DNA of 32,000 nucleotides, taken from assembly GCF_000022265.1 (NCBI RefSeq), contig NC_011979.1, positions 120,001-152,000 of the forward strand, in the 5' to 3' direction. Both the position numbers and the translations under genes were made by a program. The notes under the pieces were generated by a model. The model was not told the DNA's origin and searched no databases. It was given only the letters and a program-made list of their open reading frames with translations. Shown here piece after piece: positions 3,639-29,892 of this stretch (position 1 is the first letter of the stretch; each line of letters begins with the position of its first letter). Source of the stretch: Geotalea daltonii FRC-32. GTDB lineage: Bacteria; Desulfobacterota; Desulfuromonadia; Geobacterales; Geobacteraceae.

Positions 3639-4382
3639 ATGGATCTGAAGGGAAAAAATGCAATCGTAACCGGAGCCAGTCTGGGAATCGGCAGTGCCAT
3701 CGCGCTGGATCTGGCAAAGAATGGCGCCAACGTGGCCATCAACTACCGCAAGCACAGTGAAGAGGCCAACGCCATCTGTGCTGAAATCCAGAAGATGGGA
3801 CAGAAAGCTATCGCTGTCCAGGCCGACGTGGCCAGCTTCAAGGATGCCCAGGCTATGGTGGACAAGGTCGTCGCCGAGCTGGGCAGCGTCGATATCCTGG
3901 TCAACAACGCCGGGGTCAACCGTGACGCCGTCATCTGGAAAATGACTGAAGAGCAGTGGGACGAATGCCTTGCCATCAACCTGAAAGGGTATTTCAACTA
4001 CTGTCGCGCCGTTGCCCCCGTGATGAAGGACCAGGGGAGCGGCAAGATCGTCAACGTCACCTCCATCAACGGTATGCGCGGCAAATTCGGTCAGACGAAC
4101 TACTCTGCCGCCAAAGCCGGCATCATCGGCTTGACCAAGGCCCTTGCCCGCGAACTGGCAAAATCCAACGTCAACTGCAACGCTATCGCCCCGGGCCTCA
4201 TCGAGACGGAAATGATGGCAGCCCTGCCGGAAGATGTGAAGCAGAAATCCCTGGCCGACATCGTGCTCGGCCGCATGGGCAAGCCGGAAGAAGTGGCCTG
4301 GCTGGTCACCTTCCTCTGTTCGGAAAAATCGCGCCACATTACCGGTGAGTGCATCAAAGTTGACGGCGGACAATATATTTAG
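3639..4382 (+). CDS. Short-chain dehydrogenase/reductase, FabG-like (probable 3-hydroxyacyl-CoA dehydrogenase)
   Basis: TGASLGIGSA (TGxxxGxG), NNAG and YSAAK (YxxxK) motifs. GGAGGAG RBS. Confidence 0.85.
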   Translation: MDLKGKNAIVTGASLGIGSAIALDLAKNGANVAINYRKHSEEANAICAEIQKMGQKAIAVQADVASFKDAQAMVDKVVAELGSVDILVNNAGVNRDAVIWKMTEEQWDECLAINLKGYFNYCRAVAPVMKDQGSGKIVNVTSINGMRGKFGQTNYSAAKAGIIGLTKALARELAKSNVNCNAIAPGLIETEMMAALPEDVKQKSLADIVLGRMGKPEEVAWLVTFLCSEKSRHITGECIKVDGGQYI

Positions 4383-4387
4383 AACCA

Positions 4388-4507
4388 TTCGGCATAACTC
4401 CCCCTGACCCCTTTAGGCCCCGCGGGTCCTCTTATCTTAAAGGGGGGGAATTCCTCTCCTCCCCTTAAGATAAGGGGAGGCCGGGAGGGATTATGAAGGG
4501 TGCCGAA
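4388..4507. repeat. Intergenic nested inverted repeat with G/C runs
   Basis: Inner arms CCTCTTATCTTAAAGGGG (4428-4445) and CCCCTTAAGATAAGGGGAGG (4461-4480). Outer arms TTCGGCA (4388-4394) and TGCCGAA (4501-4507). No T-tract follows. Confidence 0.6.
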
Positions 4508-4556
4508 CACGATACAGATATTTAAAAAATATTTGCACAATTTTATGGAGGCTCCA

Positions 4557-5756
4557 ATGCGTGAAGCAGTAATAGTAGATGCAGTACGGACGCCGGTCGG
4601 TAAATGGGGCGGCGCCCTTAAAAATGTCCGTTCGGACGACCTGGCCGCACATTGTATAGCCGAGCTGGTCAAGCGGACCAAGATCGATCCTAACCTCATC
4701 GAGGATGTGGTGCTGGGCTGCACCAACCAGGCCGGTGAAGACAACCGCAACGTGGGGCGGATGGCTGCGCTTTTGGCCGGCCTCCCTTATTCGGCTGCCG
4801 GGCAAACCATCAACCGCCTCTGCGCTTCCGGTCTCAACGCCATCAACAGCGCTGCCCAGGCCATCAAGGTGGGTGAGGGGGATGTTTTCATCGCCGGCGG
4901 CACCGAGTCCATGACCCGCGCCCCCTTTGTCATGGCCAAATCCGAGTCACCTTTTTCCAGAGACGTAAAAGTTTTCGACACCGTCATCGGCTGGCGTTTC
5001 ACCAATCCCAAGATGACCGAGCCCTATGCCAAGGAAGGGATGGGAGAAACCGCAGAGAACGTGGCGGTGCGCTACGGTCTGACCCGCCAGGAGCAAGATG
5101 AATTTGCCCTGGATACCCAGAAAAAATGGGCAGCTGCCGATGCAGCCGGTAAATTCAATGATGAGATAGTACCGGTGGTTATTCCCCAGAAAAAGGGTGA
5201 CCCGATAATCGTCAGCCGTGACGAGTTTCCCCGCGGAAACGACGTGACCATGGAGCAGCTGGCCAAGCTTCCTGCTGCCTTCAGGAAGGATGGCACCGTA
5301 ACTGCCGGCAATTCCAGCGGCATCAATGACGGGGCTGCGGCGCTCCTGCTGATGGAGGCCGAAACCGCCAAGAAGCTGGGTTACAAGCCTCTGGCGCGGG
5401 TCGTTGCCAGTGCCGTTGCCGGTTGCGACCCCTCTTACATGGGACTGGGCCCCATCCCGGCGATCCAGAAAGTCCTGAAAAGGGCCAATCTGAAGATCGA
5501 AGACATCGATTTATTCGAGCTGAACGAGGCCTTTGCCGCCCAGTCCATTCCCTGCATTCGCGAGCTGGGCATCGACCCGGCCAAGGTCAACGTCAACGGC
5601 GGCTCTATCGCCATCGGCCACCCTCTTGGCTCCACCGGCGCACGCATCACGGCAACCCTGGTGCATGAGATGAAGCGCCGCAATGCACGTTATGGCATCG
5701 TTTCCCTCTGCATTGGTGTCGGCCAGGGTATCGCTACGGTGTTCGAGCGGGTATAA
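4557..5756 (+). CDS. Acetyl-CoA acetyltransferase / 3-ketoacyl-CoA thiolase
   Basis: Thiolase motifs NRLCASGLNAI (active-site Cys), NGGSIAIGHPLGSTG and CIGVGQG. Start placed at the ATG at 4557, which is preceded by GGAGG (the ORF track starts at 4500). Confidence 0.9.
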   Translation: MREAVIVDAVRTPVGKWGGALKNVRSDDLAAHCIAELVKRTKIDPNLIEDVVLGCTNQAGEDNRNVGRMAALLAGLPYSAAGQTINRLCASGLNAINSAAQAIKVGEGDVFIAGGTESMTRAPFVMAKSESPFSRDVKVFDTVIGWRFTNPKMTEPYAKEGMGETAENVAVRYGLTRQEQDEFALDTQKKWAAADAAGKFNDEIVPVVIPQKKGDPIIVSRDEFPRGNDVTMEQLAKLPAAFRKDGTVTAGNSSGINDGAAALLLMEAETAKKLGYKPLARVVASAVAGCDPSYMGLGPIPAIQKVLKRANLKIEDIDLFELNEAFAAQSIPCIRELGIDPAKVNVNGGSIAIGHPLGSTGARITATLVHEMKRRNARYGIVSLCIGVGQGIATVFERV

Positions 5757-7107: not shown

Positions 7108-7761
7108 TTAAAGCCTTGCCAGCAGGCGGCGATAGTCCTCTTCCGTATCCAGATCCATGAGAATGGCCGGAGTTTGGACTTCGATGCTTCGGATTCTTCC
7201 GGCATATTCCTGAAAGAGGGTCCTGGCGCCGCAGTCGCCGTTCAATGTGTCCATAAGGGGAAAGGTTTCCCGGCTGAAAAGAACCGGATTGCCCCGCTGG
7301 CCGTCAAAGGTGGGGATGACGATGGGGGCGTGGGAATCGGCAAAACCGGCCATGATCAGGTCGATGGTCTCAGCGGTGACCAGCGGCTGATCACCAAGGA
7401 GAAAGAGGGCGGCGTCGAAATTCACCGGAATCGCGTTCAGTCCAGCTTTCAGTGACGAACTCTGTCCCGTCTCATAGGCACTGTTGATAACGGTAGTGAC
7501 GCTTTTTTGCTCCAGAAGCGGCTTGATGCGTTCCGCTTCATGGCCGAGCACGACGATCACTCGCTGCAGGCTTGAAGCCAGGGCATTTTCCACCACCCGT
7601 TCAATGACGGTCCGACCCCGGAAGGGGAGAAGCTGTTTCGGTTGACCCATGCGGCGGCTGCTGCCGGCGGCGAGAACGATGCCGGCCACCTTGGGCTCAG
7701 GCTGATGAAAAAGCCCCGTCTGCCGCGTTGCCCTTACCATTCGTCGTTGCGGCGTACTCAT
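7108..7761 (-). CDS. mocA: Molybdenum cofactor cytidylyltransferase (MocA/YgfJ-like, MobA-like NTP transferase)
   Basis: GIVLAAGSSRRMGQPKQLL N-terminal nucleotide-binding motif and LGDQP motif. Last gene of the XDH-family maturation set. Confidence 0.8.
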   Translation of the reverse strand: MSTPQRRMVRATRQTGLFHQPEPKVAGIVLAAGSSRRMGQPKQLLPFRGRTVIERVVENALASSLQRVIVVLGHEAERIKPLLEQKSVTTVINSAYETGQSSSLKAGLNAIPVNFDAALFLLGDQPLVTAETIDLIMAGFADSHAPIVIPTFDGQRGNPVLFSRETFPLMDTLNGDCGARTLFQEYAGRIRSIEVQTPAILMDLDTEEDYRRLLARL

Positions 7762-7831
7762 AGGTGCGCCTCACTCCTCTGGTCTCGGGCGCCTTGCCCC
7801 TGGGACTTGTTGATCAGCCTGGCATACCCTG

Positions 7832-8617
7832 TCATTGGCTTCCTCCAACGTAGACACGGTGCACATTGATGCCTTCCAGAAGCTGACCGACCATGACCGC
7901 CTCGGCGACGGAGGGGGAGGCTCCGTTCAACTGGAGCGCGACGGCAGCTCCTTTCTCCTCCAGTTCGAGGGTATCAGCCTTGTTGAGGAAGATGAATCGT
8001 CGTGCCTGGGCCGGAGCCCCCTTGAAGGCACCGGAAGGATGGGCGAGAAGTCGGGCCAGGGCGGGAACGGTGATTGTTTCACCTGGCGAAAGCTGCATCA
8101 GTTCCCCTGCCAGTTCCGAGCGAAAGACCATTTCTTCTCCCAGGGGCCTGCCGAGCACCTCCAGCCCGGCCAGGGCGACGACGATGGAGGTATTTTCGGG
8201 GATGACCGGTTCATGGGCTGCCGGCGCCTTGAGGGGTTTTCTGGCTGCACCGTCGGCCTCCACGACCACCCAGTCGAATAGCCCGGAGTCTTCGAAGGTC
8301 CGGATCGCATCGGGGGGAAAGCCGTTCAGTTTATCGGTCTGGGGGAGATAGGCGGCTGCTGCCGAAATGTGCATTCCCGCAGCCTGATGGGTTTTGGCCT
8401 GGCGGAGGATGACCTGCGGGTCCTGGTCGATGAGGAGCGTTTCCGATTGCTCGGCGGTAGGAATGAGTATCTTGGTGGTGGTCGTCGTCAGAACCCGCTT
8501 GCCGGAGTAGGCCAGCTGCCTGGCCAGGTGAAACATCAGGCTTGTCTTGCCTCCTGCACCGACGATGCTCACTACGCCGTTCGGTCCGATCCCCACTATT
8601 TCGGCAAAGGATTTCAT
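7832..8617 (-). CDS. yqeC: YqeC-family accessory protein (selenium-dependent molybdenum hydroxylase marker)
   Basis: MKSFAEIVG..SIVGAGGKTSLMF (P-loop-like), VVVEADGAARKPLKAPAAHEPVIP. Start set at 8617, 5 nt after the yqeB stop (8622-8624). The longer ORF to 8710 overlaps yqeB. Confidence 0.7.
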   Translation of the reverse strand: MKSFAEIVGIGPNGVVSIVGAGGKTSLMFHLARQLAYSGKRVLTTTTTKILIPTAEQSETLLIDQDPQVILRQAKTHQAAGMHISAAAAYLPQTDKLNGFPPDAIRTFEDSGLFDWVVVEADGAARKPLKAPAAHEPVIPENTSIVVALAGLEVLGRPLGEEMVFRSELAGELMQLSPGETITVPALARLLAHPSGAFKGAPAQARRFIFLNKADTLELEEKGAAVALQLNGASPSVAEAVMVGQLLEGINVHRVYVGGSQ

Positions 8618-8621
8618 AGCC

Positions 8622-9428
8622 TTACCTGTTGTAAACAGCGAGTATCGCCTCCAGCACCGATCCCCCCAGCGCCCTGGCCTTCTCGGAAACTGTATGGCAA
8701 TAGCCTGCATCGCCCCGCGGATCGATATCGCCGATCTTGAGGCCGGTGGTGACCTGGGAGCCGGGGCGGATCAGGCCGCGCAGGATGCCGTCGATGGGGG
8801 CAGTAACTGCCTCGGTGCCGACCTGGCCGATGACGTCACCTTTGGTTATCTGGTCGCCGATCTTTCTATCGGTGGTGAAGGGGCCATTAGCCTTGGCACG
8901 GAGCACCCTTTCCTTGGTGAAGCCGCCGATGTTCCCAGGTATGCCGGTATTGGCTTCCGCCTGACCTGCGGTAATCAATCGCCCAAGATTATGTCCCCGA
9001 TTGGTTTCAACCACCACATGGCAATCGGTGCCGGCGGTAAAGCCGGGACCTAAGGCTATCACCAGCGGTGCATCGGTAATGGCTGTGCCCAGATTGCGTT
9101 TGGCAATGGTGGCGTCGATGAGGATATCGGGCTGCATACGGCCCACCGTGTCCCCTTTCGGATCGACCATGACGGCGATCCTTCCCGTTTCCCAGGCATG
9201 GGCGAGTCCTGCGCCGTCTTCAATCCTGACTGCTTCGATCCCTTCCACTGCCATCTGCCCGTCATGGACAGCTTCGCAGAAGGATACCTCCCGGCGAACC
9301 GCCAAGGGGAAGGAGGTCTCCAGCATGAGCAGGCGAGAGAACCCTGAGCGGTGAAGACGGCAGGCAATGCCGCTCGCCATTTCCCCGGCCCCTTTCATGA
9401 TGATTACCCGTTCCTTCAGCGCTTTCAT
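8622..9428 (-). CDS. yqeB: YqeB-family protein (selenium-dependent molybdenum hydroxylase system marker)
   Basis: MKALKERVIIMKGAGEMASGIACRLHRSGF..AVRREVSFCEAVHDG matches my recollection of the short YqeB/EF2563 family. Start at 9428, 5 nt after the xdhC stop (9433-9435). The ORF extension to 9638 overlaps xdhC. Confidence 0.7.
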   Translation of the reverse strand: MKALKERVIIMKGAGEMASGIACRLHRSGFSRLLMLETSFPLAVRREVSFCEAVHDGQMAVEGIEAVRIEDGAGLAHAWETGRIAVMVDPKGDTVGRMQPDILIDATIAKRNLGTAITDAPLVIALGPGFTAGTDCHVVVETNRGHNLGRLITAGQAEANTGIPGNIGGFTKERVLRAKANGPFTTDRKIGDQITKGDVIGQVGTEAVTAPIDGILRGLIRPGSQVTTGLKIGDIDPRGDAGYCHTVSEKARALGGSVLEAILAVYNR

Positions 9429-9432
9429 GACC

Positions 9433-10194
9433 TTACTCCCGGCCGTAATAGGTGGCAAGTAGCTGACTGGCAATGCTGATGGCGATTTCCCGTGGGGAAT
9501 TGCCGCCGTTGTCGTGGCCGATGGGGCAGCGGACGAGGGATAGGTCAAGCCCCTTTTCCCCCAGGTTTTTCTTGATGCCGGCCCACTTGGATTTGCTCCC
9601 CACCATTCCCACGTAGCGGGTGTGGTGCGGCAGCACATCCTCCAGCACCTGCTGGTCCATGGTGCCGCTGTAGGTCATGATGGTGACGAAGGTGCGTTTG
9701 TCGCACCAGTTGGCTTTACCGATGAAATCACTGTAGTGGCACTGGTGTCTGATGGCGGTACCGGGAAGGGTGGGGGCGTTGATCCATTCGTCCCGCTCAT
9801 CGATGAGGTGGACGCGGAAGGGGGTGCCTTCAAGGACATGGGCGAGGGACTGGCCGATGTGACCGGCACCGAAGATGTAGAGAACGGGGTTGTCATTGAT
9901 CAGTTCCATATGGTACTCCATGGTGCCGCCGCAGGCGGGAAATTCGCCCCTCGGTTTCAGGGGAACGGTGCCGGTGCCCCCCTGCATGCTTTCGAAGCAC
10001 TGACGGGCATCCTCCAGGGCGTAATACTCAGGCGTGCCTCCACCGACGGTGCCGAAAAAGGTCCCGTCCGGCAGGACAATCATCTTTGCCCCACCCTTGC
10101 GTGGCGTGGAGCCGCTGCTTTTGGTCACCGTCACCAGCACCGCCAGCTGATTGCTGCGCCGCAGTTCGTCCAATTTGCCGATCCAGTCCCACAT
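9433..10194 (-). CDS. xdhC: XdhC/CoxI-family molybdenum cofactor insertion chaperone
   Basis: XdhC N-domain (LVTVTKSSGSTPRKGGAKM..GTVGGG) and Rossmann domain (YIFGAGHIGQSLA..YVGMVGSKSK). Confidence 0.85.
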   Translation of the reverse strand: MWDWIGKLDELRRSNQLAVLVTVTKSSGSTPRKGGAKMIVLPDGTFFGTVGGGTPEYYALEDARQCFESMQGGTGTVPLKPRGEFPACGGTMEYHMELINDNPVLYIFGAGHIGQSLAHVLEGTPFRVHLIDERDEWINAPTLPGTAIRHQCHYSDFIGKANWCDKRTFVTIMTYSGTMDQQVLEDVLPHHTRYVGMVGSKSKWAGIKKNLGEKGLDLSLVRCPIGHDNGGNSPREIAISIASQLLATYYGRE

Positions 10195-10236
10195 GGCGTA
10201 CCTCGTTTAGTCAAAACCATAACCTGTAAAACCTCA

Positions 10237-10322
10237 GCCACGAATTTCACGAATGAACACGAATATAACTAAAAACTCCTTTTGCTTTTAAGTGATTCGT
10301 GCCAATTCGTGTCATTCGTGGC
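10237..10322. repeat. Heptad-array inverted repeat: 3x CACGAAT, spacer, 3x ATTCGTG
   Basis: CACGAAT at 10239, 10248 and 10258. ATTCGTG at 10295, 10305 and 10314. Flanked by GC...GC, in the 137-nt gap between the Mo-subunit stop and the xdhC start. Confidence 0.8.
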
Positions 10323-10331
10323 TAATTGGCT

Positions 10332-12635
10332 TTATGCCTTTGCCTCTTCCCGTTCCCGTTTTTCTTTCAATGCCCGCCAGACCTTTTCGTAGGTCAGGGG
10401 GAGGCTGTTGACCCGCACCCCCATGGCGTCGAAGATGGCATTGGAGAACATCCCCAGCGTCGGATTTGTCGAGCCTTCGCCGATTTCCTTCACTCCCCAC
10501 GGCCCGGACGGTTCGATGCTGTCCACAACCTCCGACTGGATGGGAGGCATGTCCATGGCGGTCAAAAGCCGGTAGTTGGCCAGCTCGGCATTCTTGATCC
10601 GTCCCTTGTCGTCAAAGAGGACCTCCTCCCAGACCGACTCCCCCATTCCCATGTAGAGGGCGCCATGGACCTGGCCGTGGAGCAGGCGCGGGTTGATGAC
10701 CTTGCCGCAGTCGTGAACATCCCAGATGCCGACGACACTGATTTCTCCAGTTTCCTTGTCGATGGATACTTCTCCCACCTGGGCGCCGAAGCTGTAGGCG
10801 GGGGAGGTGCCGACCGCTGCCCCCTTGAAGCTACCCCCCAGTTTGGGAGGCGTGTAGGCGCCCCGGCCCAAAAGCGGTCCCTTGAGGACAAAGTGCCGGC
10901 GGGCCGCCTCCTCGAAGGTAACTGATTTTCCAGTGCGGGATTTGGAGAAGATCACCCCTTCCTCGCATTCCAGGTCATCGGCGGGGAGCGAAAGCATGGT
11001 CGAAGCCATCTCCAGCAGCTGTTTCTTGATCTCTTCCCCGGCCTGCTTGACGGCGGCCCCGGACATGTAAGTCTGGCGGCTGGCATAGGCGCCGAAATCC
11101 AGCGGCGTTATCTCCGTATCGGCGGCGACGATCTTCATCTGTTCGTAGCGGTAACCCATGGCCTCGGCGGCCATCTGACAGAGTATGGTATCGGACCCCT
11201 GACCGATGTCAACGGAGCCGGTATAGAGCGTCGCTGCCGTGCCGTCTTCATGGACCTTGATGAAAGCGGCGGCGTGGGGGAGGTCGGTGCGGTAGATGGG
11301 GTAGCCTGCGCCAGTGACGAAGCTGCCGGTGGCAACACCGATGCCGCGGCCGTGGGGAAGGTTTTTCTTCTTCTCATCCCAGCCGGAAATTTCCCTGGCC
11401 CGCTCCAGGCACTCGCGCATCTTGCAGGAGTTGACCTGGAAATCATTGGGGGTGACCGTGTCGGCACGCCTGGCATTGCGGATGCGGATATCCATGGGAT
11501 CGATCCCCAGGTCAGCAGCCACATTGTCCAGGTGGCTCTCGAAAGCATACTTGGGCTGGGGTGCGCCGTGGCCTCGCTGGGCGCCACAGGCGGGGAGATT
11601 GGTATAGACCCGGAACATGTCGAACTGATAGTTGTCGAATTCATAGGTCATGGGGAGCAGAGCGCCGGCATAGTAGGCGCTGGCGATCCCCAAGCTGGTG
11701 TAGGCACCCCCATCCATGACGAAATTGGCCTTGGCGGCAAGGATCTTGCCGTCCTTGTCCACCCCGGTGGTTATCTCCATGTACTGTGCGTGCCGCCCCC
11801 GGTTGTGGGCGAACATCTCGGCCCGGTCATAGAAAGTGCGCACCGGCCGCCCGGTCCGCTTGGCAAGCACGGCCCCGGCGAACTCAAGACCGGTAGGCTC
11901 CAGCTTACCGCCGAACCCTCCGCCCAGATAAGGCTTGATGATCCTTACATCACCCATGGGCATGCCGAATTCCCGGGCGATGTAGTACTGGAAATAGTGG
12001 GGAGACTGGGTGCTGGCATAGATGGTCAGCTTTTCCCCTTCCCACATGGAGATGGAGGAATGGGGCTCGATGGGGGTCTGGTAGGTACGCTGGCCGACGA
12101 AAACGTCAGTGCGCACATGGTGCGCCTCTGCCAGGGCCTTTTCCACGTCGCCGAACTCCTGGTGGATCTCGGTGTTGATGTTCCGCTCGTACTCCTCGTG
12201 GACCAGGGGCTGCCCCTCATCCATGGCGTGGCGGAAATCGAGCACCGCCGGCAGCTCCTCGTACTCCACCTTGATCAGCTTCATGGCCTTGTAGCAGGTC
12301 TCCTCGTCGACGCAGGCGACGGCAGCCACCTTGTCGCCGACGAAACGGACCTTGTCGATGCAGAAGATGTTCTCGTCCCAGCGGGCCGGGCTCAGGCCGT
12401 ACTTCAATTCCGGCACGTCCTTGTGAGTAATGACCGCCTTCACCCCCGGCAGAGCCTCCGCCGCCGAGGTGTCGATGGAGACTATCCGGGCGTGGGCGTA
12501 GGGGCTGGTGAGGATCTTGCCGTAGAGCATGTTGGGGAACTTGAGATCGCCGGTGTACTTGGCGCCACCGGTAACCTTATCGGGGCCGTCGATACGCGGG
12601 ACGCTGCGGCCGATGACTTTATGGGTATCACTCAT
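10332..12635 (-). CDS. Xanthine dehydrogenase-family molybdopterin-binding large subunit (4-hydroxybenzoyl-CoA reductase alpha-like)
   Basis: 767 aa from the ATG at 12635, with a GGAG RBS (the ORF track starts at 12704). N-terminal VIGRSVPRIDGPDKVTGGAKYTGD and QRGHGAPQ-type motifs of aldehyde oxidase/XDH a/b-hammerhead and Mo domains. Probably one of pcmRST; I am not sure of the letter assignment. Confidence 0.8.
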   Translation of the reverse strand: MSDTHKVIGRSVPRIDGPDKVTGGAKYTGDLKFPNMLYGKILTSPYAHARIVSIDTSAAEALPGVKAVITHKDVPELKYGLSPARWDENIFCIDKVRFVGDKVAAVACVDEETCYKAMKLIKVEYEELPAVLDFRHAMDEGQPLVHEEYERNINTEIHQEFGDVEKALAEAHHVRTDVFVGQRTYQTPIEPHSSISMWEGEKLTIYASTQSPHYFQYYIAREFGMPMGDVRIIKPYLGGGFGGKLEPTGLEFAGAVLAKRTGRPVRTFYDRAEMFAHNRGRHAQYMEITTGVDKDGKILAAKANFVMDGGAYTSLGIASAYYAGALLPMTYEFDNYQFDMFRVYTNLPACGAQRGHGAPQPKYAFESHLDNVAADLGIDPMDIRIRNARRADTVTPNDFQVNSCKMRECLERAREISGWDEKKKNLPHGRGIGVATGSFVTGAGYPIYRTDLPHAAAFIKVHEDGTAATLYTGSVDIGQGSDTILCQMAAEAMGYRYEQMKIVAADTEITPLDFGAYASRQTYMSGAAVKQAGEEIKKQLLEMASTMLSLPADDLECEEGVIFSKSRTGKSVTFEEAARRHFVLKGPLLGRGAYTPPKLGGSFKGAAVGTSPAYSFGAQVGEVSIDKETGEISVVGIWDVHDCGKVINPRLLHGQVHGALYMGMGESVWEEVLFDDKGRIKNAELANYRLLTAMDMPPIQSEVVDSIEPSGPWGVKEIGEGSTNPTLGMFSNAIFDAMGVRVNSLPLTYEKVWRALKEKREREEAKA

Positions 12636-12660
12636 CTTGGATTCTCCATGTTCGCGTATG

Positions 12661-12721
12661 CGTAGGGGCGTACCCGTGTGTGCGCCCTTATCTCGGGCAG
12701 ACACATGGGTTTGCCCCTACG
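12661..12721. other. Nested three-tier stem-loop between the FeS-subunit and Mo-subunit genes
   Basis: CGTAGGGGC/GCCCCTACG (9 bp), CCCGTGTGT/ACACATGGG (9 bp, one G-U in the minus-strand RNA), GCCC/GGGC (4 bp). Confidence 0.7.
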
Positions 12722-12738
12722 AGGGTTGCGATGTTGTA

Positions 12739-13254
12739 TTAATGGTCTTCCGGCGCTGTCCGCCCCTGGGAGGCTGCCAGCACTGCCTCCACAATATGGA
12801 CATAGCCGGTGCAGCGGCAGAGATTGCCGGCGATGGCCTCCCTTACCTCAGTTTCAGTCGGGTGCGGGTTACGGGTCAAGAGCGCCTTGGCCGACAGGAC
12901 CATGCCGGGGGTGCAGTAGCCGCACTGGACGGCGGCATGATTGATCATGGATTCCTGGATGGCGTCCAGTTTGCCGTTGGCGGCGACCCCTTCGATGGTG
13001 GTGATCTCCCGGCCGTCCACCTCCACCGCCAGCATCAGGCAGGAATCAACCGGCTTACCGTCAAGAAGGACCGTGCAGGAGCCGCAGTCTCCCAGCTCGC
13101 ACCCCTTCTTGGTACCGGTAAGGTCCAGCTGGTCGCGCAGTACATTGGTCAGGATGGCGTTGCCCTTTACCAGCACCGTTTTTGCGTCACCGTTTACATT
13201 CAGGGTGATCAGGTAACGCTGCACCCCGTCTTTGTCAGTTATCATTTGTGGCAT
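12739..13254 (-). CDS. XDH-family [2Fe-2S] small subunit (4-hydroxybenzoyl-CoA reductase gamma-like)
   Basis: Plant-type [11 protein letters not shown] and second-cluster CGYCTPG..CRCTGY motifs. Start at 13254 behind GAGGAGG, 9 nt after the FAD-subunit stop (13266-13268). Confidence 0.85.
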
Positions 13255-13265
13255 ATCATTCCTCC

Positions 13266-14135
13266 TCACACGTGGCCTTCGTCAATAGCCTTGCGCAGTG
13301 CCCGTTTCGTCAGTACGCCAACCAGGTTACGCCGGTATTCGGCAGAACCGCGGATACTGTCCCGTGGGCGGCTTGCTGCCGCAGCCTTTTCCCCGGCTTC
13401 AGCCAACAGGTCGTCGTTTATTTTTTTGCCCCGCAGGAAGTCTTCCGCTCCCTTGGCCCGCATGACGGTAGGAGCTGCCGAGGCCAGGACGACCCGTGCG
13501 TCCTCCAGGATGTCTCCTGCAACCCTGACCGAGACGGCAACCCCCACAACGGCCAGGGCGCCGGAACGGCGCAAGCCGAACTTCATGTAGGTGCTGCCGG
13601 TGGTGGGCTGGTCCGGGATGGTGATGTCGGCAAGGAGTTCTCCCGGCGCAATCACTGTCTCGGCCGCACCATGGAAGAAATCCTCCAGGGGCATGGTTCG
13701 TTCCCCTTTGACGGATACCAGGCGGATAGAGGCATTAAGAGCAATGAGGATTGGCGGCAGGTCGGCGGAAGGGACACCATTGACAATGTTGCCTCCCACT
13801 GTCCCCATGTTGCAGATCTGGTTGGAGGCCATGGTGTGGGCAGCCATGGGAAGCGACAGAAAACGTTCCTGGAGAAGCTTCGAGGTGTAGATGGCATTGT
13901 GGCTGGTCAGCGCCCCCATGACGATGCCGCGGCCCGGTTCATGGCGAATGGTACGCAGGTCGTCCAGGTGCTTGAGGGAGACCAGGTTCTCCGGAGCCAG
14001 TTTTCCAACCTTCATCTTGTGCAGGACATCGGTTCCTCCCGCCAGAACGATGGCCTTGTTGCCAAGCTCTGCCAGGAGCGTGCAGGCCTCATCAAGGGTT
14101 TGGGGGGCATGATATGCAAAATCGGGCATGTACAT
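13266..14135 (-). CDS. XDH/CoxM-family FAD-binding medium subunit (4-hydroxybenzoyl-CoA reductase beta-like, without a Cys-rich insert)
   Basis: FAD_binding_5-type sequence ([20 protein letters not shown]). 289 aa with only two Cys residues. Confidence 0.8.
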
Positions 14136-14236: not shown

Positions 14237-14671
14237 TCATTCCCTGAAATCCTTGAGAAACCGCTTAAGGAGAAGCCTTTCCTCCGGTGAAAAGCCCTTC
14301 AGCAGTTCGTCGTTGGTCTGTTCCATGGTTGCCGCCAGTTGGCCGATGGCGGCAGTTCCCTTTTCCGTCAGGTAAACCCTTGCCACACGCCCATCCTGTG
14401 CGTCGGCCTCTCTTCTCACCCAGCCCGACGTCACCAGCCGGTCAAGGATGCCGGCCAGGGTGGCGGTATCAAGGGAGATGCGCCGGCCGATCTCGCCGAC
14501 GGAAAGCCCGTCCTCCTCCCAGAGTGCCTCCATGAACAGGCATTGCATGGGAGTGAGGGCAAATGTCTGCAGCCGTCCTTTCAGGGTTCCCTGGGCGCGC
14601 TGATGGGCTTTGGCAAACAGAAAAACTATGTTGTCCCGGTAGGAGATCATCCTGGTCAATTCCTCTTGCAT
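14237..14671 (-). CDS. MarR-family transcriptional regulator
   Basis: Winged-helix MarR pattern (LTPMQCLFMEALWEEDGLSVGEIGRRISLDTATLAGILDRL..DGRVARVYLTEKG). The true start may be the Met at 14650, because the first ATG lies inside the predicted operator and -10 region. Confidence 0.85.
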   Translation of the reverse strand: MQEELTRMISYRDNIVFLFAKAHQRAQGTLKGRLQTFALTPMQCLFMEALWEEDGLSVGEIGRRISLDTATLAGILDRLVTSGWVRREADAQDGRVARVYLTEKGTAAIGQLAATMEQTNDELLKGFSPEERLLLKRFLKDFRE

Positions 14672-14702
14672 ACAAGATATCTCCAGTGTGGTTTTTTGTC
14701 AA
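14664..14702 (-). promoter_or_regulatory. Putative marR promoter with an autoregulatory palindrome
   Basis: On the minus strand: TTGACA (14697-14702), 17-nt spacer, TATCTT (14674-14679). Perfect inverted repeat TCTTG-CATA-CAAGA at 14664-14677. Confidence 0.5.
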
Positions 14703-14965: not shown

Positions 14966-15811
14966 TTACTGGCCTACTGCCTTGTCCTGGCCGTCAAGTC
15001 TGATCTCTTCGAATTCCATGTCCAAAAGATTGATGCTGAGTTTCCGGTTACGCAGAGTGTTGCCGGCGCCAAGGAGAATCTTGCAGACTTCCGCTACCTC
15101 TATGCTGGCCACCAGCGCCGGGGTAAAGGATGGATTGCCCAGCCGCTGCTCAAGGCCCTTGCCTTCCACCCAGCGGCTGTACAGCTGCCGGATTGTTCCG
15201 TCTCCGGGAAACTGGGTGACGACTTGGCCGAACCAGCCGCCGATGGCGCCATGCACCAGTGGAAGCCCCAAGCTGTCACAGCTGTCGGACAAAGCCAGCC
15301 TGGTCGAAACCGAATCCAGTGCATCTACCACCACCTGGACACCATGGAAAAGCTGGGCGGCATTTTTCGGTGCATAAGCAATCTGCACCGGGACCAATGC
15401 CACCGCCGGGTTGATTTCTGCCACCCGCGCTGCAGCTGACTCAACCTTTGCCTCTCCCAGCCTGGCTGGGCTGGAGAGCAGTTGGCGGTTCAGATTGTGT
15501 TCTTCGAACACATCCGGGTCGATGGCGACGATGGTGCCAACTCCGAGCCGCGCCAGCTCTTCGATGATATAGCCGCCAAGCCCTCCACAGCCAGCCACTG
15601 CTACCACCCCTTGGAAAAGTGTCAGTTGCTGGGCAATGTTGATCGCCTGACGATTGCGCTGGTAGCGGGCAGGAAGAATCTCCAGGAGCAATGCCGTTTC
15701 TTCCACCTGGGCAAGGGTGGTACGGAAGCGTTCGGCAGCGGCAACCTGGCTGGCCCAGGAGATAAGGCCATTTTCCGCCCGCTCTGCAAGGAATTGGCGC
15801 AATTCATCCAT
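14966..15811 (-). CDS. ThiF/MoeB/HesA-family adenylyltransferase (E1-like)
   Basis: VAVAGCGGLGGYI nucleotide-binding loop and NLNRQ motif. Start at 15811 behind AGGAGG, 1 nt after the MoaD-like stop (the ORF track starts at 15856). No paired CXXC zinc motif seen. Confidence 0.8.
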   Translation of the reverse strand: MDELRQFLAERAENGLISWASQVAAAERFRTTLAQVEETALLLEILPARYQRNRQAINIAQQLTLFQGVVAVAGCGGLGGYIIEELARLGVGTIVAIDPDVFEEHNLNRQLLSSPARLGEAKVESAAARVAEINPAVALVPVQIAYAPKNAAQLFHGVQVVVDALDSVSTRLALSDSCDSLGLPLVHGAIGGWFGQVVTQFPGDGTIRQLYSRWVEGKGLEQRLGNPSFTPALVASIEVAEVCKILLGAGNTLRNRKLSINLLDMEFEEIRLDGQDKAVGQ

Positions 15812-15812
15812 G

Positions 15813-16037
15813 TCAGCCTCCTGCCACCAAAGGAAAGAGGGCAAGACTGTCACCATCCCTCAGCCGTTGATCCGGATCGGCATGTCTGCCGTTGAGCATG
15901 ATCATGCTGATTTCAGAAACCGGAATCTGCAGTTCATCGATAATCTCGCTGATCTGCGTGCTTGGTGGGTATTGCCTTGTTGCTGCGGCAAAACGTCCGA
16001 AGCGGAATGTGGCGAACAATTTTACGGTTATGTCCAT
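15813..16037 (-). CDS. MoaD/ThiS-family ubiquitin-like sulfur-carrier protein
   Basis: 74 aa ending in ...LFPLVAGG followed directly by the stop, i.e. a C-terminal Gly-Gly. Sits between the AOR and ThiF-like genes. Confidence 0.75.
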   Translation of the reverse strand: MDITVKLFATFRFGRFAAATRQYPPSTQISEIIDELQIPVSEISMIMLNGRHADPDQRLRDGDSLALFPLVAGG

Positions 16038-16059
16038 TGCGCAGCCCTTTCATCCCGAT

Positions 16060-17790
16060 CTAGAAATTCCAGAACGCATCGATTTCCTCATCGGTAAAAT
16101 CCCACACGGCATTGTGGGGTGGAAGCGGTTCCCTGAAGAACTCCGGCAGCCGATCATCCTTGTTGGTGAAACCGGCCGCCAGATTGAAGGCACGCTCGGT
16201 CTTCAAGGTATTGACCCCCAGGCCGCCAATCCAGTCTGGGGTAAGCTCCAGGCCGAAGCGGGCATTGAGCATGTCGAGCAAAGCCGGGACGCAGGTGGGA
16301 ATATCTGCTGCGGGAAAACCTATGAATAGGCAGAGGCCGATGGAGTCGAGCATGACGGTGACGATCTGCAGGTGACGGGACAACTCAACTTGACCATCCT
16401 TCTTCAAGGGATCGACAATGCCTCCACCGACACCCATCAGATTGGTGGCGACGGCATAGCCCATCGTGTGGTCTGCACCCATGGTGCTGGTGGCGTAGGT
16501 GATGCCGATACCCTTGATAGATCGGGGGTCATAGGCAGGAATGGCCTGGTTTTTCACCACCGGTACCCGTGTGACGCCGTATACCTTGCCCACATGACCG
16601 GCGCCGCTGCCGATGATCCGGCCGAGGGGTGTCCCCTTACCGATATCTTCCTTCAGGATGCGGAGTACCCCTTCACCGTCGCCGAAAGGGAGCACTCCTG
16701 CCTCCATGGCTACGCCGAAAGCGATCGAGGTCTCGATGGAATCGACGCCGATGTCGTCCATGATACTGTCGGCAGTCGCAATCTGGTCAAGATCGCCAAG
16801 ACCGGCGTTGGCTCCCAGTGTTTCAATGGTCTCATACTCGAAGCCGGAGGTGACGTAATTGCCCTGCTTGTCGTGGTAGACCTGGGAGCATTGGATGATG
16901 CAGCCAGGCTGGCAGCCATGCTTCGGTTTGCCACCGCGCTCGATGATGGTTTCCCGCAAAGTCTCGCCGGAGATCTTCTCGTGCCCTTCGTAACGACCAT
17001 AGGTAAAGTTGCGGGTGGGAAGTCCCCCTGCCTCGTTGACGATGTTGACCATTTCCGCGGTGCCGAAGGTGGGCAGCCCCTGGCCGGTCCCTGGGTGTTC
17101 GAGGATGGCCTTGGCAAAGACCCTGGCGGCGGTGGTGAATTTTGTCGGATCGGCCAGCTTGATGCCGGGGGCATCGCTGTCGTCGATGGAAATAAACTTG
17201 ATCCTCTTCGAGCCCATTACCGCTCCAAGGCCGCCACGGCCGTGGCTGCGCAGCTTGCTGTCCGAGTCCTTCACCGAGATGTTGGCGGCCAGCATCTTCA
17301 TCTCGCCAGCCGGGCCGATGGTGATGACCCCTGTTTTCTTGCCGAGCCTCTTTTCAAGGGTTTCGACGACGGCAAAATTCCCCTTGCCGATCAGCTCCGA
17401 CTCTTCGGCGATGGATACTCCATCCTTGTTGACGTGCAGGCTGTGCCAGTTGTTTCCTTTGGGCAGACCTTCAATGATCAGCGCCTTGATCCCCAGGCGG
17501 GCGAACATCTGGGCGGCCAACCCGCCGGCATTGCTTTCCTTGATAGTGCCGGTGAGGGGGCTTTTGGCGCCTGCGGAAAAGCGCCCGCTGTTAGCGGCAG
17601 TGGTGCCGCTCAACAGTCCAGGGGCAAAGACCAGCTTGTTGTTTTCCCCAAGGGGGTGGCAGGTGGGGGGAACCTCCTTGGCCACGATGGTGGAAGTCAG
17701 GGCGCGACCGCCGAGAGCTGCCCATTCCTTTGGTACCGATTCGGTGCCGGTGGTGAGAGTCGTCATGTTGACGCGAAGGATCTTGTTCAT
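16060..17790 (-). CDS. aor: Aldehyde:ferredoxin oxidoreductase family (tungsten/molybdopterin-containing AOR)
   Basis: 576 aa. AOR_N-like N-terminus (ILRVNMTT..GGRALTS..LGENNKLVFAPGLLSG..SGRFSAGAKSPLTG). Central Cys cluster CQPGCIIQC. Confidence 0.85.
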   Translation of the reverse strand: MNKILRVNMTTLTTGTESVPKEWAALGGRALTSTIVAKEVPPTCHPLGENNKLVFAPGLLSGTTAANSGRFSAGAKSPLTGTIKESNAGGLAAQMFARLGIKALIIEGLPKGNNWHSLHVNKDGVSIAEESELIGKGNFAVVETLEKRLGKKTGVITIGPAGEMKMLAANISVKDSDSKLRSHGRGGLGAVMGSKRIKFISIDDSDAPGIKLADPTKFTTAARVFAKAILEHPGTGQGLPTFGTAEMVNIVNEAGGLPTRNFTYGRYEGHEKISGETLRETIIERGGKPKHGCQPGCIIQCSQVYHDKQGNYVTSGFEYETIETLGANAGLGDLDQIATADSIMDDIGVDSIETSIAFGVAMEAGVLPFGDGEGVLRILKEDIGKGTPLGRIIGSGAGHVGKVYGVTRVPVVKNQAIPAYDPRSIKGIGITYATSTMGADHTMGYAVATNLMGVGGGIVDPLKKDGQVELSRHLQIVTVMLDSIGLCLFIGFPAADIPTCVPALLDMLNARFGLELTPDWIGGLGVNTLKTERAFNLAAGFTNKDDRLPEFFREPLPPHNAVWDFTDEEIDAFWNF

Positions 17791-28050: not shown

Positions 28051-29892
28051 TTATTCCCATTCCTCTTGACAGTAAAACTCGGCCATGGTTATCGCTCCTC
28101 CGGGACAGCGGCGGGCGCACATGCCGCAGCTGGCACAGCGGCTGTCGTCCTTGATGATGGCCGTCATCCCTTTCTTGCCGGATGACTTCTCCAGGGCGTC
28201 GGTCAGCTTCTCCAGATTGCCGTCCCCCTGAATATCCGCCAGCCGGACCAGCCTCAGTGCCCCATTGACACAGGTATCGACGCAGGTCCCGCAACGGAGG
28301 CAGCGGGAGCGGTCAAAGACCGTCTGGATACTGCACTGCCGGCATCGGGCAGCCTGCTGACGTGCCTGTTCTTCGGCAAAGCCGAGGGTGATCTCTTCCT
28401 GGGTCCTGATCCGTTCGCCCGCTTCCCGTTTCGGCACCTTGACCGAGGCGATGGTCTCACAGCGGGTATTCTGAAAATCCGGGGCCACCGTCCGCATGTA
28501 TGCTTTCTTTCTGACCTGCAGATCTTTGCCGCTCAGGTAACCGTGGATGGCGCGAGCCGCCTTCTGCCCGTCTGCAATGGCATCGGTGGCATTCCTGCCG
28601 AAACGCCAGCGGTCATCTCCCCCGGCAAAGACTCCGGGCAGGTTGGTCGACAGGTCGTCATTGGCCCGGATCAGGCCGTTTGGCGTCAGCTCCAGACCCT
28701 CCATGCCGGAGAGGGAGGGAAGGGTGGAGGACTGTCCCACCGCCAGGATTACTGTGTCGGCCAGAAGGATGGTCGTGCTGTCCGGAACAAAGGTGGGATT
28801 GAACTTGCCTTCCGCATCGAATACCGAGCTTACCTTGAGAAACTCCACCCCGGTCGCGCGCCCCTCTTGTCCCACCACCCGTTGCGGTCCCAGGGACGGA
28901 TAAAAGGTGATTCCCTCTTCCTGGGCATCTTCCTTGTCCGAAAGGCTGGCAGGCATCGTTTCCCATGATTCCAGGCAGGCGATGGCCACTTGTATCGCCC
29001 CTTGGCGCAGGGCATGCTGGGCACAGTCGATGGCCACCCCGCCGCCGCCGATGACCACGCAACTCTTCCCCATGGTCATCTGGCCATGGTCACGCACATA
29101 ATCGATACCGGTGTAGACACCCTTTAATTCAGAGCCTTCAAGGGCAAGCTTCAGGGGGTCCTGGAGACCGATGGTGATGAAGATGGAGTCGTAGCCCTGT
29201 TGCCGGAGGTCGGCCAGGGATACGCCCCTGCCGATGGGGCTATTGAGCTTCAGCTCCACCCCAAGCTTCAGGATCGCCTCGATCTCCTCCATGACGATCT
29301 CCTTGGGCAGGCGGAAACCGGGGATGCCGGTCATCAGCTGGCCGCCGGGTTGCGGGGCGGCCTCGAAAATCGTCACCCGGTAACCGAGCAGGGCCAGGTC
29401 ATGGGCAGCCGACAGGCCTGCCGGGCCGGAGCCAACGATGGCGACCCGCGGAGAAAGCTTCGTGTCCCCCGTTTTCTCCTTGGCCTTCTGCAGCCACCTT
29501 GACATGGTCAGGATATTGTTGCCGGTTCGGTCGCTCATCCATTCATCCCACTGGGAGAACTCATCGAGCCGTTCGGCGACAGCAGCGGGTGAGGCCACGC
29601 CATGCCGGTCGCAGGCAAAACGCTTCAGTGCCCGGATATCCACCGGGCTTCCCTCTGCCCCTTTCCGGCAGTTCTTTTCGCATGGAGCAGTGCAGACCCT
29701 GCTGCAGACAGAGACCAGGGGGTTGGTCTGCCTGGCAATGAGGAAGGCCTTCTCGTAATCACCTTCGGTAATGGCTCTGACGTACCTCTTGGTATCGGTT
29801 CCCAAAGGACAGGCGCTTTGACAGGCCGTCAAGGCCTGATAATCCTCGATCCCTAGAATCTTTACCTGATACTTGCCGTTGAGGTTTCCCAT
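28051..29892 (-). CDS. GltD-like NAD(P)H-dependent FeS flavoprotein oxidoreductase with a C-terminal 2x[4Fe-4S] ferredoxin domain
   Basis: GltD-type N-terminal Cys motifs (CQSACPLG, VCSRVCTAPCEKNC). Dinucleotide folds VAIVGSGPAGLSAA and VVIGGGGVAIDCA. CLRCGTCVDTC and CASCGMCARRCP. No TM segment or signal. Probably pcmB. Confidence 0.75.
   Translation of the reverse strand: MGNLNGKYQVKILGIEDYQALTACQSACPLGTDTKRYVRAITEGDYEKAFLIARQTNPLVSVCSRVCTAPCEKNCRKGAEGSPVDIRALKRFACDRHGVASPAAVAERLDEFSQWDEWMSDRTGNNILTMSRWLQKAKEKTGDTKLSPRVAIVGSGPAGLSAAHDLALLGYRVTIFEAAPQPGGQLMTGIPGFRLPKEIVMEEIEAILKLGVELKLNSPIGRGVSLADLRQQGYDSIFITIGLQDPLKLALEGSELKGVYTGIDYVRDHGQMTMGKSCVVIGGGGVAIDCAQHALRQGAIQVAIACLESWETMPASLSDKEDAQEEGITFYPSLGPQRVVGQEGRATGVEFLKVSSVFDAEGKFNPTFVPDSTTILLADTVILAVGQSSTLPSLSGMEGLELTPNGLIRANDDLSTNLPGVFAGGDDRWRFGRNATDAIADGQKAARAIHGYLSGKDLQVRKKAYMRTVAPDFQNTRCETIASVKVPKREAGERIRTQEEITLGFAEEQARQQAARCRQCSIQTVFDRSRCLRCGTCVDTCVNGALRLVRLADIQGDGNLEKLTDALEKSSGKKGMTAIIKDDSRCASCGMCARRCPGGAITMAEFYCQEEWE

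Follow-up and report, generated by a model that had tools for sequence, protein, structure and literature searches.

To our knowledge, selenium-dependent molybdenum (Se-Mo) hydroxylases have so far been described from purine and nicotinate metabolism only. They include the nicotinate dehydrogenase of Eubacterium barkeri (PDB 3HRD), the clostridial xanthine dehydrogenase and purine hydroxylase, and the 2,8-dioxopurine dehydrogenase (DOPDH) of Clostridium sporogenes. Here, we consider a 32,000-nucleotide window of the genome of Geotalea (Geobacter) daltonii FRC-32, to whose positions all coordinates refer unless a locus is named. In this window, the genes encoding a presumed 4-hydroxybenzoyl-coenzyme A (CoA) reductase, a member of the same superfamily (244 bits to 3HRD_A), are accompanied by the markers that also accompany the Se-Mo hydroxylases: XdhC, YqeB, YqeC, and MocA. 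As is presumed of this reductase, the dioxopurine enzyme carries out a reductive ring dehydroxylation. The known Se-Mo hydroxylases act on N-heterocycles (purines and nicotinate), whereas the substrate of the G. daltonii enzyme would be a CoA thioester of a carbocyclic aromatic acid; the presence of selenium is demonstrated for the former and proposed for the latter. We consider the best explanation to be that the reductase carries or needs a labile Mo-Se cofactor, a reading that we hold to be slightly more probable than an even chance.

The same three-subunit architecture and presumed reaction are found in HcrCAB of Thauera aromatica (PDB 1RM6 and 1SB3) and in its relatives in Magnetospirillum, Burkholderiales, and Sedimenticola. 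These Thauera-type enzymes resemble that of G. daltonii in having an alpha subunit that falls under TIGR03194, conserved Mo-site residues, and a gene for XdhC, sometimes also one for MocA, nearby. The pcmRST-pcmUVWX genes of Geobacter metallireducens (Gmet_2134 to Gmet_2140) are orthologues in a sister genus and show no substantive difference: the gene set and its order (Mo subunit, XdhC, HP1/YqeB, HP2/YqeC, and a MobA-related gene), as well as the very short junctions, are alike (Zhang et al. 2008, PMC2432076), and the genes belong to the same p-cresol cluster. Gmet_2134 to Gmet_2136 were assigned to 4-hydroxybenzoyl-CoA reductase activity by Butler et al. 2007 and Aklujkar et al. 2009, and the annotation of pcmV, pcmW, and pcmX (Gmet_2138 to Gmet_2140) describes their products as possible cofactor-biosynthesis proteins of a 4-hydroxybenzoyl-CoA reductase. 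In Escherichia coli, the three accessory families are likewise adjacent (yqeB-yqeC-mocA, b2875 to b2877, next to xdhD/ygfK), but the client enzymes are purine-related and YqeB is fused to XdhC. The original prediction for the G. daltonii genes, made from the DNA sequence, held that E. coli shows the same synteny; the adjacency stands, but the operon order does not, as yqeC and yqeB are reversed on the opposite strand and mocA is divergent.

The G. daltonii cluster has been tabulated before. Table 1 of Zhang, Turanov, Hatfield, and Gladyshev 2008 (PMC2432076) lists exactly these genes under the third selenium-utilization trait, as Geobacter sp. FRC-32, contig 252, with HP1 at 9051 to 10067, HP2 at 8261 to 9046, a MobA-related gene at 7537 to 8190, XdhC at 9862 to 10623, and an "aldehyde oxidoreductase Mo subunit" at 10761 to 13064; the contig coordinates equal those of the window plus 429. 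Its authors proposed that the clustered Mo enzyme might use Se as well as Mo, and a metal-reducing deltaproteobacterium is among the species with TIGR03309 in Haft and Self 2008. None of these selenium-trait papers names the enzyme as a 4-hydroxybenzoyl-CoA reductase, and the Geobacter papers are silent on selenium here. In a literature search that combined the enzyme name with selenium or YqeB, no paper came up in which a selenium requirement of a 4-hydroxybenzoyl-CoA reductase is stated or tested, in agreement with the original remark that selenium is not an established property of these enzymes. The signature at this locus is thus already known and annotated (RefSeq; the 2008 table), and it is the explicit connection between the reductase and selenium that appears to be unstated. 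The selenium proposal is a reasonable one, though it is implied by the existing annotation and the 2008 table. New here are the membership of the enzyme in a tight strict-anaerobe clade, its missing [4Fe-4S] loop, and a clade-specific, rearrangement-resistant linkage to yqeB and yqeC; the value added may also be taken to include the recent precedent of a reductive Se-Mo enzyme, DOPDH.

The pcmRST-pcmUVWX unit of G. daltonii

Seven co-directional genes lie on the minus strand at positions 7108 to 14135, and their identities and order are those originally proposed: flavin adenine dinucleotide (FAD), [2Fe-2S], and Mo subunits, followed by xdhC, yqeB, yqeC, and mocA. They are the pcmRST-pcmUVWX unit of the G. 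daltonii p-cresol/4-hydroxybenzoate pathway. The pcm cluster is reportedly described in Peters et al. 2007 (J Bacteriol 189:4729). The YqeB, YqeC, and FAD subunit sequences are exact matches to G. daltonii ACM18478, ACM18477, and ACM18482, respectively. GenBank names the first two putative 4-hydroxybenzoyl-CoA reductase cofactor-biosynthesis proteins, and RefSeq names YqeB [quoted passage not shown] and likewise annotates YqeC as a selenium-dependent cofactor protein.

The FAD medium (beta) subunit, probably PcmR by gene order, is encoded at 13266 to 14135 (289 amino acids; Pfam FAD_binding_5 and CO_deh_flav_C). Its stop codon is overlapped by the GTG start of the small (gamma) subunit gene (12739 to 13269; 176 amino acids from this GTG; Pfam Fer2_2 and Fer2, two [2Fe-2S] domains), for which an alternative ATG start occurs five codons downstream. 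The Mo large (alpha) subunit is encoded at 10332 to 12635 (767 amino acids; TIGR03194 and three Pfam domains), where the mechanical open reading frame extends to a GTG at 12704. The accessory genes follow on the same strand: xdhC (PcmU; 9433 to 10194; 253 amino acids; Pfam XdhC_CoxI and XdhC_C), yqeB (PcmV; HP1/EF2563 family; 8622 to 9428; 268 amino acids; TIGR03309), yqeC (PcmW; HP2/EF2564 family; 7832 to 8617; 261 amino acids; TIGR03172 and PF19842), and mocA (PcmX; YgfJ, the molybdenum cofactor cytidylyltransferase; 7108 to 7761; up to 217 amino acids; TIGR03310 and Pfam NTP_transf_3). The true start of MocA may be internal, as the TIGR03310 alignment begins at residue 27. MocA, XdhC, and an Mo enzyme belonging to the xanthine oxidase family cluster with the YqeB and YqeC markers, all co-directional within 7 kb. 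The 4-nucleotide spacing reported for the xdhC/yqeB and yqeB/yqeC junctions is exact: they read GAG TAA ggtc ATG and AGG TAA ggct ATG, respectively, and at both a Shine-Dalgarno-like GGAG/AGG lies within the end of the upstream gene.

Hidden Markov model searches, which had been suggested as a check on the original prediction, place both markers above the curated NCBIfam cut-offs of their families: YqeB scores 370.8 against TIGR03309 (cut-off 220; E = 3e-111), and YqeC scores 198 against TIGR03172 (cut-off 73.05; E = 2e-58) and 147 bits against PF19842 (cut-off 27.6). MocA scores 212.4 against TIGR03310 (cut-off 186.5). XdhC belongs to the XdhC/CoxI chaperone family, with matches above cut-off to PF02625 (70.6 bits) and PF13478 (109.8 bits), and is slightly below the TIGR02964 equivalog cut-off (146.9 versus 161.6). 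The shortness of yqeB, remarked on earlier, is accounted for by the architecture of the E. coli protein (541 amino acids), an XdhC-YqeB fusion in which the window XdhC matches residues 9 to 248 and the window YqeB matches residues 268 to 529 (48% identity). That the two are fused in E. coli and encoded by split genes here argues that XdhC and YqeB act together; the 4-nucleotide xdhC/yqeB junction would be the split form of one functional unit.

YqeC shares 35% identity with its E. coli counterpart from end to end and has a P-loop, GAGGKTS, at residues 20 to 26 (invariant GxGGK(T)), as well as an invariant EADG motif. Its profile finds weak matches (E about 1e-3) in the P-loops of FtsY, ArsA, and MurE, and these P-loop features indicate a nucleotide-dependent step. 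YqeB has a strongly conserved core (H137 and E141-T-N-R-G-H146). Its AlphaFold2 model (predicted local distance difference test score, 75) shows a Rossmann-like N terminus and a C-terminal biotinyl/lipoyl-like barrel, with the conserved core, residues 108 to 171, unmodeled. Matches in a fold search are limited to the C-terminal barrel of about 70 residues and reveal neither a catalytic clue nor a mechanism. A sequence search of the structure database returned no solved structure that is a homologue of YqeB or YqeC.

A strict-anaerobe reductase clade and its linkage to yqeB and yqeC

The alpha subunit scores 1279.7 against TIGR03194, the model for the 4-hydroxybenzoyl-CoA reductase alpha subunit (cut-off 994.55; aligned from 35 to 779 of 790), and residues of the Mo site that are invariant in the alignment are intact. 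Its closest solved structure is Thauera HcrA (1RM6_A; 564 bits), to which it is just 38.6% identical. The other two subunits fall below the cut-offs of their models: gamma scores 187.9 against TIGR03193, the HcrC model (cut-off 257.8), and beta 107.8 against TIGR03195, the HcrB model (cut-off 404.55). The beta subunit is of the CoxM/XdhB type, and its best match among solved structures is CutM of a CO dehydrogenase (180 bits, versus 61 bits for Thauera HcrB). In alignment with a Thauera-type beta subunit, it has a gap of about 37 residues where the latter carries the cysteine-rich [4Fe-4S] loop CLDTRC...C...C...C. This [4Fe-4S]-binding loop is the defining feature of the "inverted electron flow" of the Thauera enzyme. 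The beta subunit is 289 amino acids long in G. daltonii, Desulfoscipio gibsoniae, Thermincola, and Desulfosporosinus burensis, versus 324 to 332 amino acids in Thauera-type loci with a free-standing subunit, and the gene order is beta-gamma-alpha in G. daltonii rather than the gamma-alpha-beta of the Thauera type. The positions that bear on the loop are 13266 to 14135 of the window and 4324 to 5304 of locus L015.

Alpha subunits 74 to 92% identical to that of the window number in the hundreds and occur in Desulfuromonadales-like bacteria, Deferrisomatales, Desulfosporosinus, Desulfoscipio, Desulfotomaculum, and Thermincola. In a neighbor-joining tree they form a tight clade, here called Geobacter-type, whose sister is a small uncharacterized group; the Thauera-type clade is farther off. 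By these sequence relationships, the G. daltonii enzyme is most probably a strict-anaerobe 4-hydroxybenzoyl-CoA reductase. Two paralogous Geobacter-type alpha genes, whose products are 67% and 74% identical to the window protein, occur about 9 kb apart on one contig (L120 and L121).

We scored the neighborhoods of 168 loci by tblastn (80 from genomes, 78 from metagenomes, and 10 found by exact-protein look-up). For the genome scan, the window alpha subunit was aligned with Thauera HcrA and four strict-anaerobe homologues to give the query; the 80 genome loci are among the matches listed, are mostly distant family members, and serve as background, not to survey the orthologues. Either yqeB or yqeC lies within 10 kb in 29 of the 52 informative Geobacter-type loci and, after removal of near-duplicates, in 21 of 42. 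The corresponding figures are 6/63 for other loci of the xanthine oxidase family (Fisher p = 6e-6 against 21/42) and 0/10 for Thauera-type loci (p = 0.003). The association of yqeB/yqeC with this enzyme clade is therefore beyond chance. Where the alpha subunit is at least 84% identical to that of the window and enough downstream sequence is available, xdhC-yqeB follows immediately downstream without exception (12/12 loci), and YqeB identity declines in parallel with alpha-subunit identity. D. gibsoniae and Thermincola have a different order, Mo-IclR-yqeC-mocA-yqeB-xdhC-MoeA-like. Related loci carry genes for AMP-forming CoA ligases, UbiD-type carboxylases, and aromatic-acid transporters. As yqeB and yqeC are conserved in several gene orders and phyla, we conclude that the linkage has survived rearrangement. 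In D. gibsoniae (L162, 8609 to 22183), the yqeC-mocA-yqeB-xdhC-MoeA-like module lies between two operons of the xanthine oxidase family, one encoding a Geobacter-type reductase and the other a trio whose alpha subunit is just 41% identical; the two enzymes may there share a maturation module.

Selenium or sulfur at the molybdenum site

Our inference of how selenium is inserted, and of what YqeB and YqeC do in the process, runs as follows. PcmRST, whose three subunits bind FAD, two [2Fe-2S] clusters, and the molybdopterin-cytosine-dinucleotide cofactor, respectively, would reductively strip the para-hydroxyl group to give benzoyl-CoA, and the four co-directional downstream genes would form its dedicated cofactor-maturation line. 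MocA would add cytidine monophosphate (CMP) to Mo-molybdopterin, an activity established for the E. coli enzyme. XdhC would retain the cofactor during exchange of the terminal ligand and then insert it into the apo-alpha subunit; this behavior is established for XdhC and PaoD homologues. YqeB, translationally coupled to XdhC, and the P-loop protein YqeC would place a labile Se on Mo, replacing or adding to the sulfido ligand, with selenophosphate from a SelD encoded elsewhere in the genome as the probable Se source. The enzyme would then be a selenium-dependent molybdenum hydroxylase operating in reverse, in which Se on Mo, combined with the missing [4Fe-4S] loop, may be an alternative solution to low-potential dehydroxylation. 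Whether the strict-anaerobe reductase is a true selenium-molybdenum enzyme, the first with a carbocyclic aromatic CoA thioester as substrate and the second reductive, dehydroxylating Se-Mo enzyme of the xanthine oxidase type after DOPDH, seems to us evenly balanced.

The genetic precedent for selenium comes from clostridia. Deletion of yqeB in Clostridioides difficile phenocopies deletion of selD on xanthine and urate, and DOPDH purified from a selD mutant of C. sporogenes is inactive; DOPDH reduces urate, which is xanthine-oxidase chemistry run backwards (2025 preprint). Across diverse taxa and niches, TIGR03309 is confined to selD-positive genomes, and it adjoins selD in three orphan-selD genomes, those of Enterococcus faecalis and Haloarcula marismortui and that of Clostridium phytofermentans (Haft and Self 2008). 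A second survey placed selD near yqeB/yqeC in 5 of 10 orphan-SelD organisms and listed for FRC-32 two selD genes and one Mo subunit of the family, and one such subunit for G. metallireducens as well (Zhang et al. 2008, PMC2432076). With a single family Mo subunit listed, PcmT is the only visible client of YqeB and YqeC.

Several observations weigh against selenium in this enzyme. The presence of SelD does not discriminate, since Geobacter requires it for selenocysteine anyway. The Thauera-type enzymes perform the same chemistry with neither yqeB nor yqeC nearby in any of 10 loci, and the reaction therefore has no chemical need of selenium. In the Geobacter-type clade, roughly half of the loci lack both genes within 10 kb; these include Desulfosporosinus burensis, Peptococcaceae CEB3, and several metagenomic sub-clades. 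Four close relatives (L081, L084, L086, and L129; alpha subunits 85 to 91% identical) have xdhC-yqeB without yqeC alongside, and in L081 mocA is directly 3' of yqeB. Their lack of yqeC is consistent with the behavior of C. difficile, in which deletion of yqeC has no phenotype. The biochemical functions of YqeB and YqeC are putative, and no active-site sequence signature separates selenium from sulfur enzymes, two structural studies (one of them a 2025 preprint) having reported none. Only the joint presence of YqeB and YqeC is held to be diagnostic of the trait; either protein alone may serve processes unrelated to selenium (Peng et al. 2016). No selD gene was found in the window or near any of the 168 loci; this absence is uninformative because selD is also far from yqeB in genomes that use selenocysteine as well (Haft and Self 2008).

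Several of these points favor a second explanation, which we regard as a real possibility of clearly lower probability: the same enzyme would hold an ordinary sulfido-Mo cofactor, with YqeB and YqeC as selenium-independent maturation or insertion helpers. YqeB could, for example, be the partner domain of XdhC and YqeC a nucleoside triphosphatase that loads or protects the cytosine-dinucleotide cofactor, and their correlation with SelD would stem from the anaerobic way of life that the organisms have in common. Such confounding is possible, given that 80% of the trait-bearing organisms are anaerobes (Peng et al. 2016); the same share also counts in favor of selenium. Thauera-type reductases, with XdhC nearby and with or without MocA, manage without YqeB or YqeC, and the fold search with YqeB pointed to no catalytic function. 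Set against this are the restriction of TIGR03309 to selD-positive genomes, its adjacency to selD in orphan-selD genomes, the shared phenotype of the yqeB and selD deletions in C. difficile, and the scores of both window proteins, which exceed the equivalog cut-offs. If the enzyme proved to be free of Se, the locus would show that the YqeB/YqeC signature over-predicts selenium use.

It is very improbable that the Mo enzyme is instead some other xanthine-oxidase-family enzyme, hydroxylating or dehydroxylating an aromatic or heteroaromatic compound, that lies in the p-cresol cluster by chance: such an enzyme would fit the low identity to the sole crystallized reductase, the beta and gamma scores below the HcrB and HcrC models, the lack of the loop thought to feed low-potential electrons, the changed gene order, and a tree in which each of the two clades is nearer to uncharacterized relatives than to the other, but the alpha subunit exceeds the TIGR03194 equivalog cut-off by about 285 bits, the genes stand in a p-cresol/4-hydroxybenzoate pathway context, related loci encode CoA ligases, UbiD-type carboxylases, and aromatic-acid transporters, the Gmet_2134 to Gmet_2136 genes have been assigned to the activity, and the pathway requires this step while no other family member is listed in either Geobacter genome (Zhang et al. 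2008, PMC2432076).

Should the reductase carry or need selenium, the class of Se-Mo hydroxylases would extend to the anaerobic breakdown of phenolic pollutants, and Se could become limiting as a trace element in bioremediation by Geobacter-type bacteria, whose anaerobic breakdown of phenol, p-cresol, and 4-hydroxybenzoate would be limited by its supply. A genetic system exists for G. metallireducens, and Geobacter would be better suited than clostridia, with their several such enzymes, for study of the synthesis of the labile Se cofactor and of the roles of YqeB and YqeC. It would also be a clean model, with one family client beside one yqeB-yqeC pair per genome (Zhang et al. 2008, PMC2432076). 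The two clades that share a reaction, one with the markers and one without, amount to a natural experiment on the replacement of S by Se at Mo.

Hairpin, regulator, and neighboring genes

A hairpin predicted by RNA folding lies on the minus strand at 10227 to 10334, between the alpha-subunit gene and xdhC. It begins at the alpha stop codon and has three CACGAAT repeats per arm, about 10 nucleotides apart; its fold of -56.1 kcal/mol (z = -7.6) was equaled in stability by 0 of 200 shuffles. The window has no other instance of the repeat pattern, which is also absent from the homologous intergenic region of every related locus compared; among the 164 loci compared in all, its sole match is one unpaired copy in a locus that is unrelated (L025). 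The hairpin may set the expression of the structural genes apart from that of the genes for maturation; it could stabilize or attenuate the mRNA, serve as a protein-binding array, or be a small repeat element that has inserted here.

A gene for a MarR-family protein (14237 to 14671, minus strand; Pfam MarR) lies immediately upstream of the reductase genes, and its product is a likely regulator of the unit. A sigma-70-like promoter match lies upstream of it at 14702 to 14674 on the minus strand, and MarR genes are also found upstream of several Thauera-type operons.

The rest of the window encodes a major facilitator superfamily (MFS) transporter, a GltD-like Fe-S flavoprotein, cytochrome b, Rieske, and cytochrome c proteins, two flavoproteins like p-cresol methylhydroxylase (PCMH), an outer-membrane MetA-family protein, an aldehyde:ferredoxin oxidoreductase, a MoeB/ThiF-like protein, and beta-oxidation and electron transfer flavoprotein (ETF) components. 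The p-cresol genes here, and the CoA ligase and UbiD carboxylase genes at related loci, provide a pathway context that yields 4-hydroxybenzoyl-CoA. On the minus strand at 14966 to 17790, the gene for the MoeB/ThiF-like adenylyltransferase is directly downstream of that for the tungsten/molybdenum-pterin aldehyde:ferredoxin oxidoreductase, and these form a second pterin-cofactor-related pair in the cluster.

The GltD-like protein, an NAD(P)-binding Fe-S flavoprotein of 613 amino acids, is encoded at 28051 to 29892 on the minus strand, near the upstream end of the pcm genes and just downstream of the MFS gene. It is a possible electron-supply partner. We considered it as a GltD/YgfK-like member of the selenium-trait families and rejected this assignment, as it scores 211 bits against TIGR03315 (cut-off 835); it is a distant relative of the purine-pathway proteins YgfK and AegA. 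A GltD-like gene is also found 3' of hcrB in a Burkholderiaceae locus (L161, 13313 to 15721).

Two Thauera-type loci have arrangements of their own. In Sedimenticola selenatireducens (L160, 13298 to 16411), genes for XdhC, a MoCF_biosynth-MocA fusion, and a small NifU_N-like protein come after the operon, a maturation module that differs from that of G. daltonii and may be sulfur-based. The other (L168, 12316 to 14904) encodes beta subunit and AMP-forming CoA ligase as one product of 862 amino acids, a fusion that couples the activating step with the dehydroxylating step.

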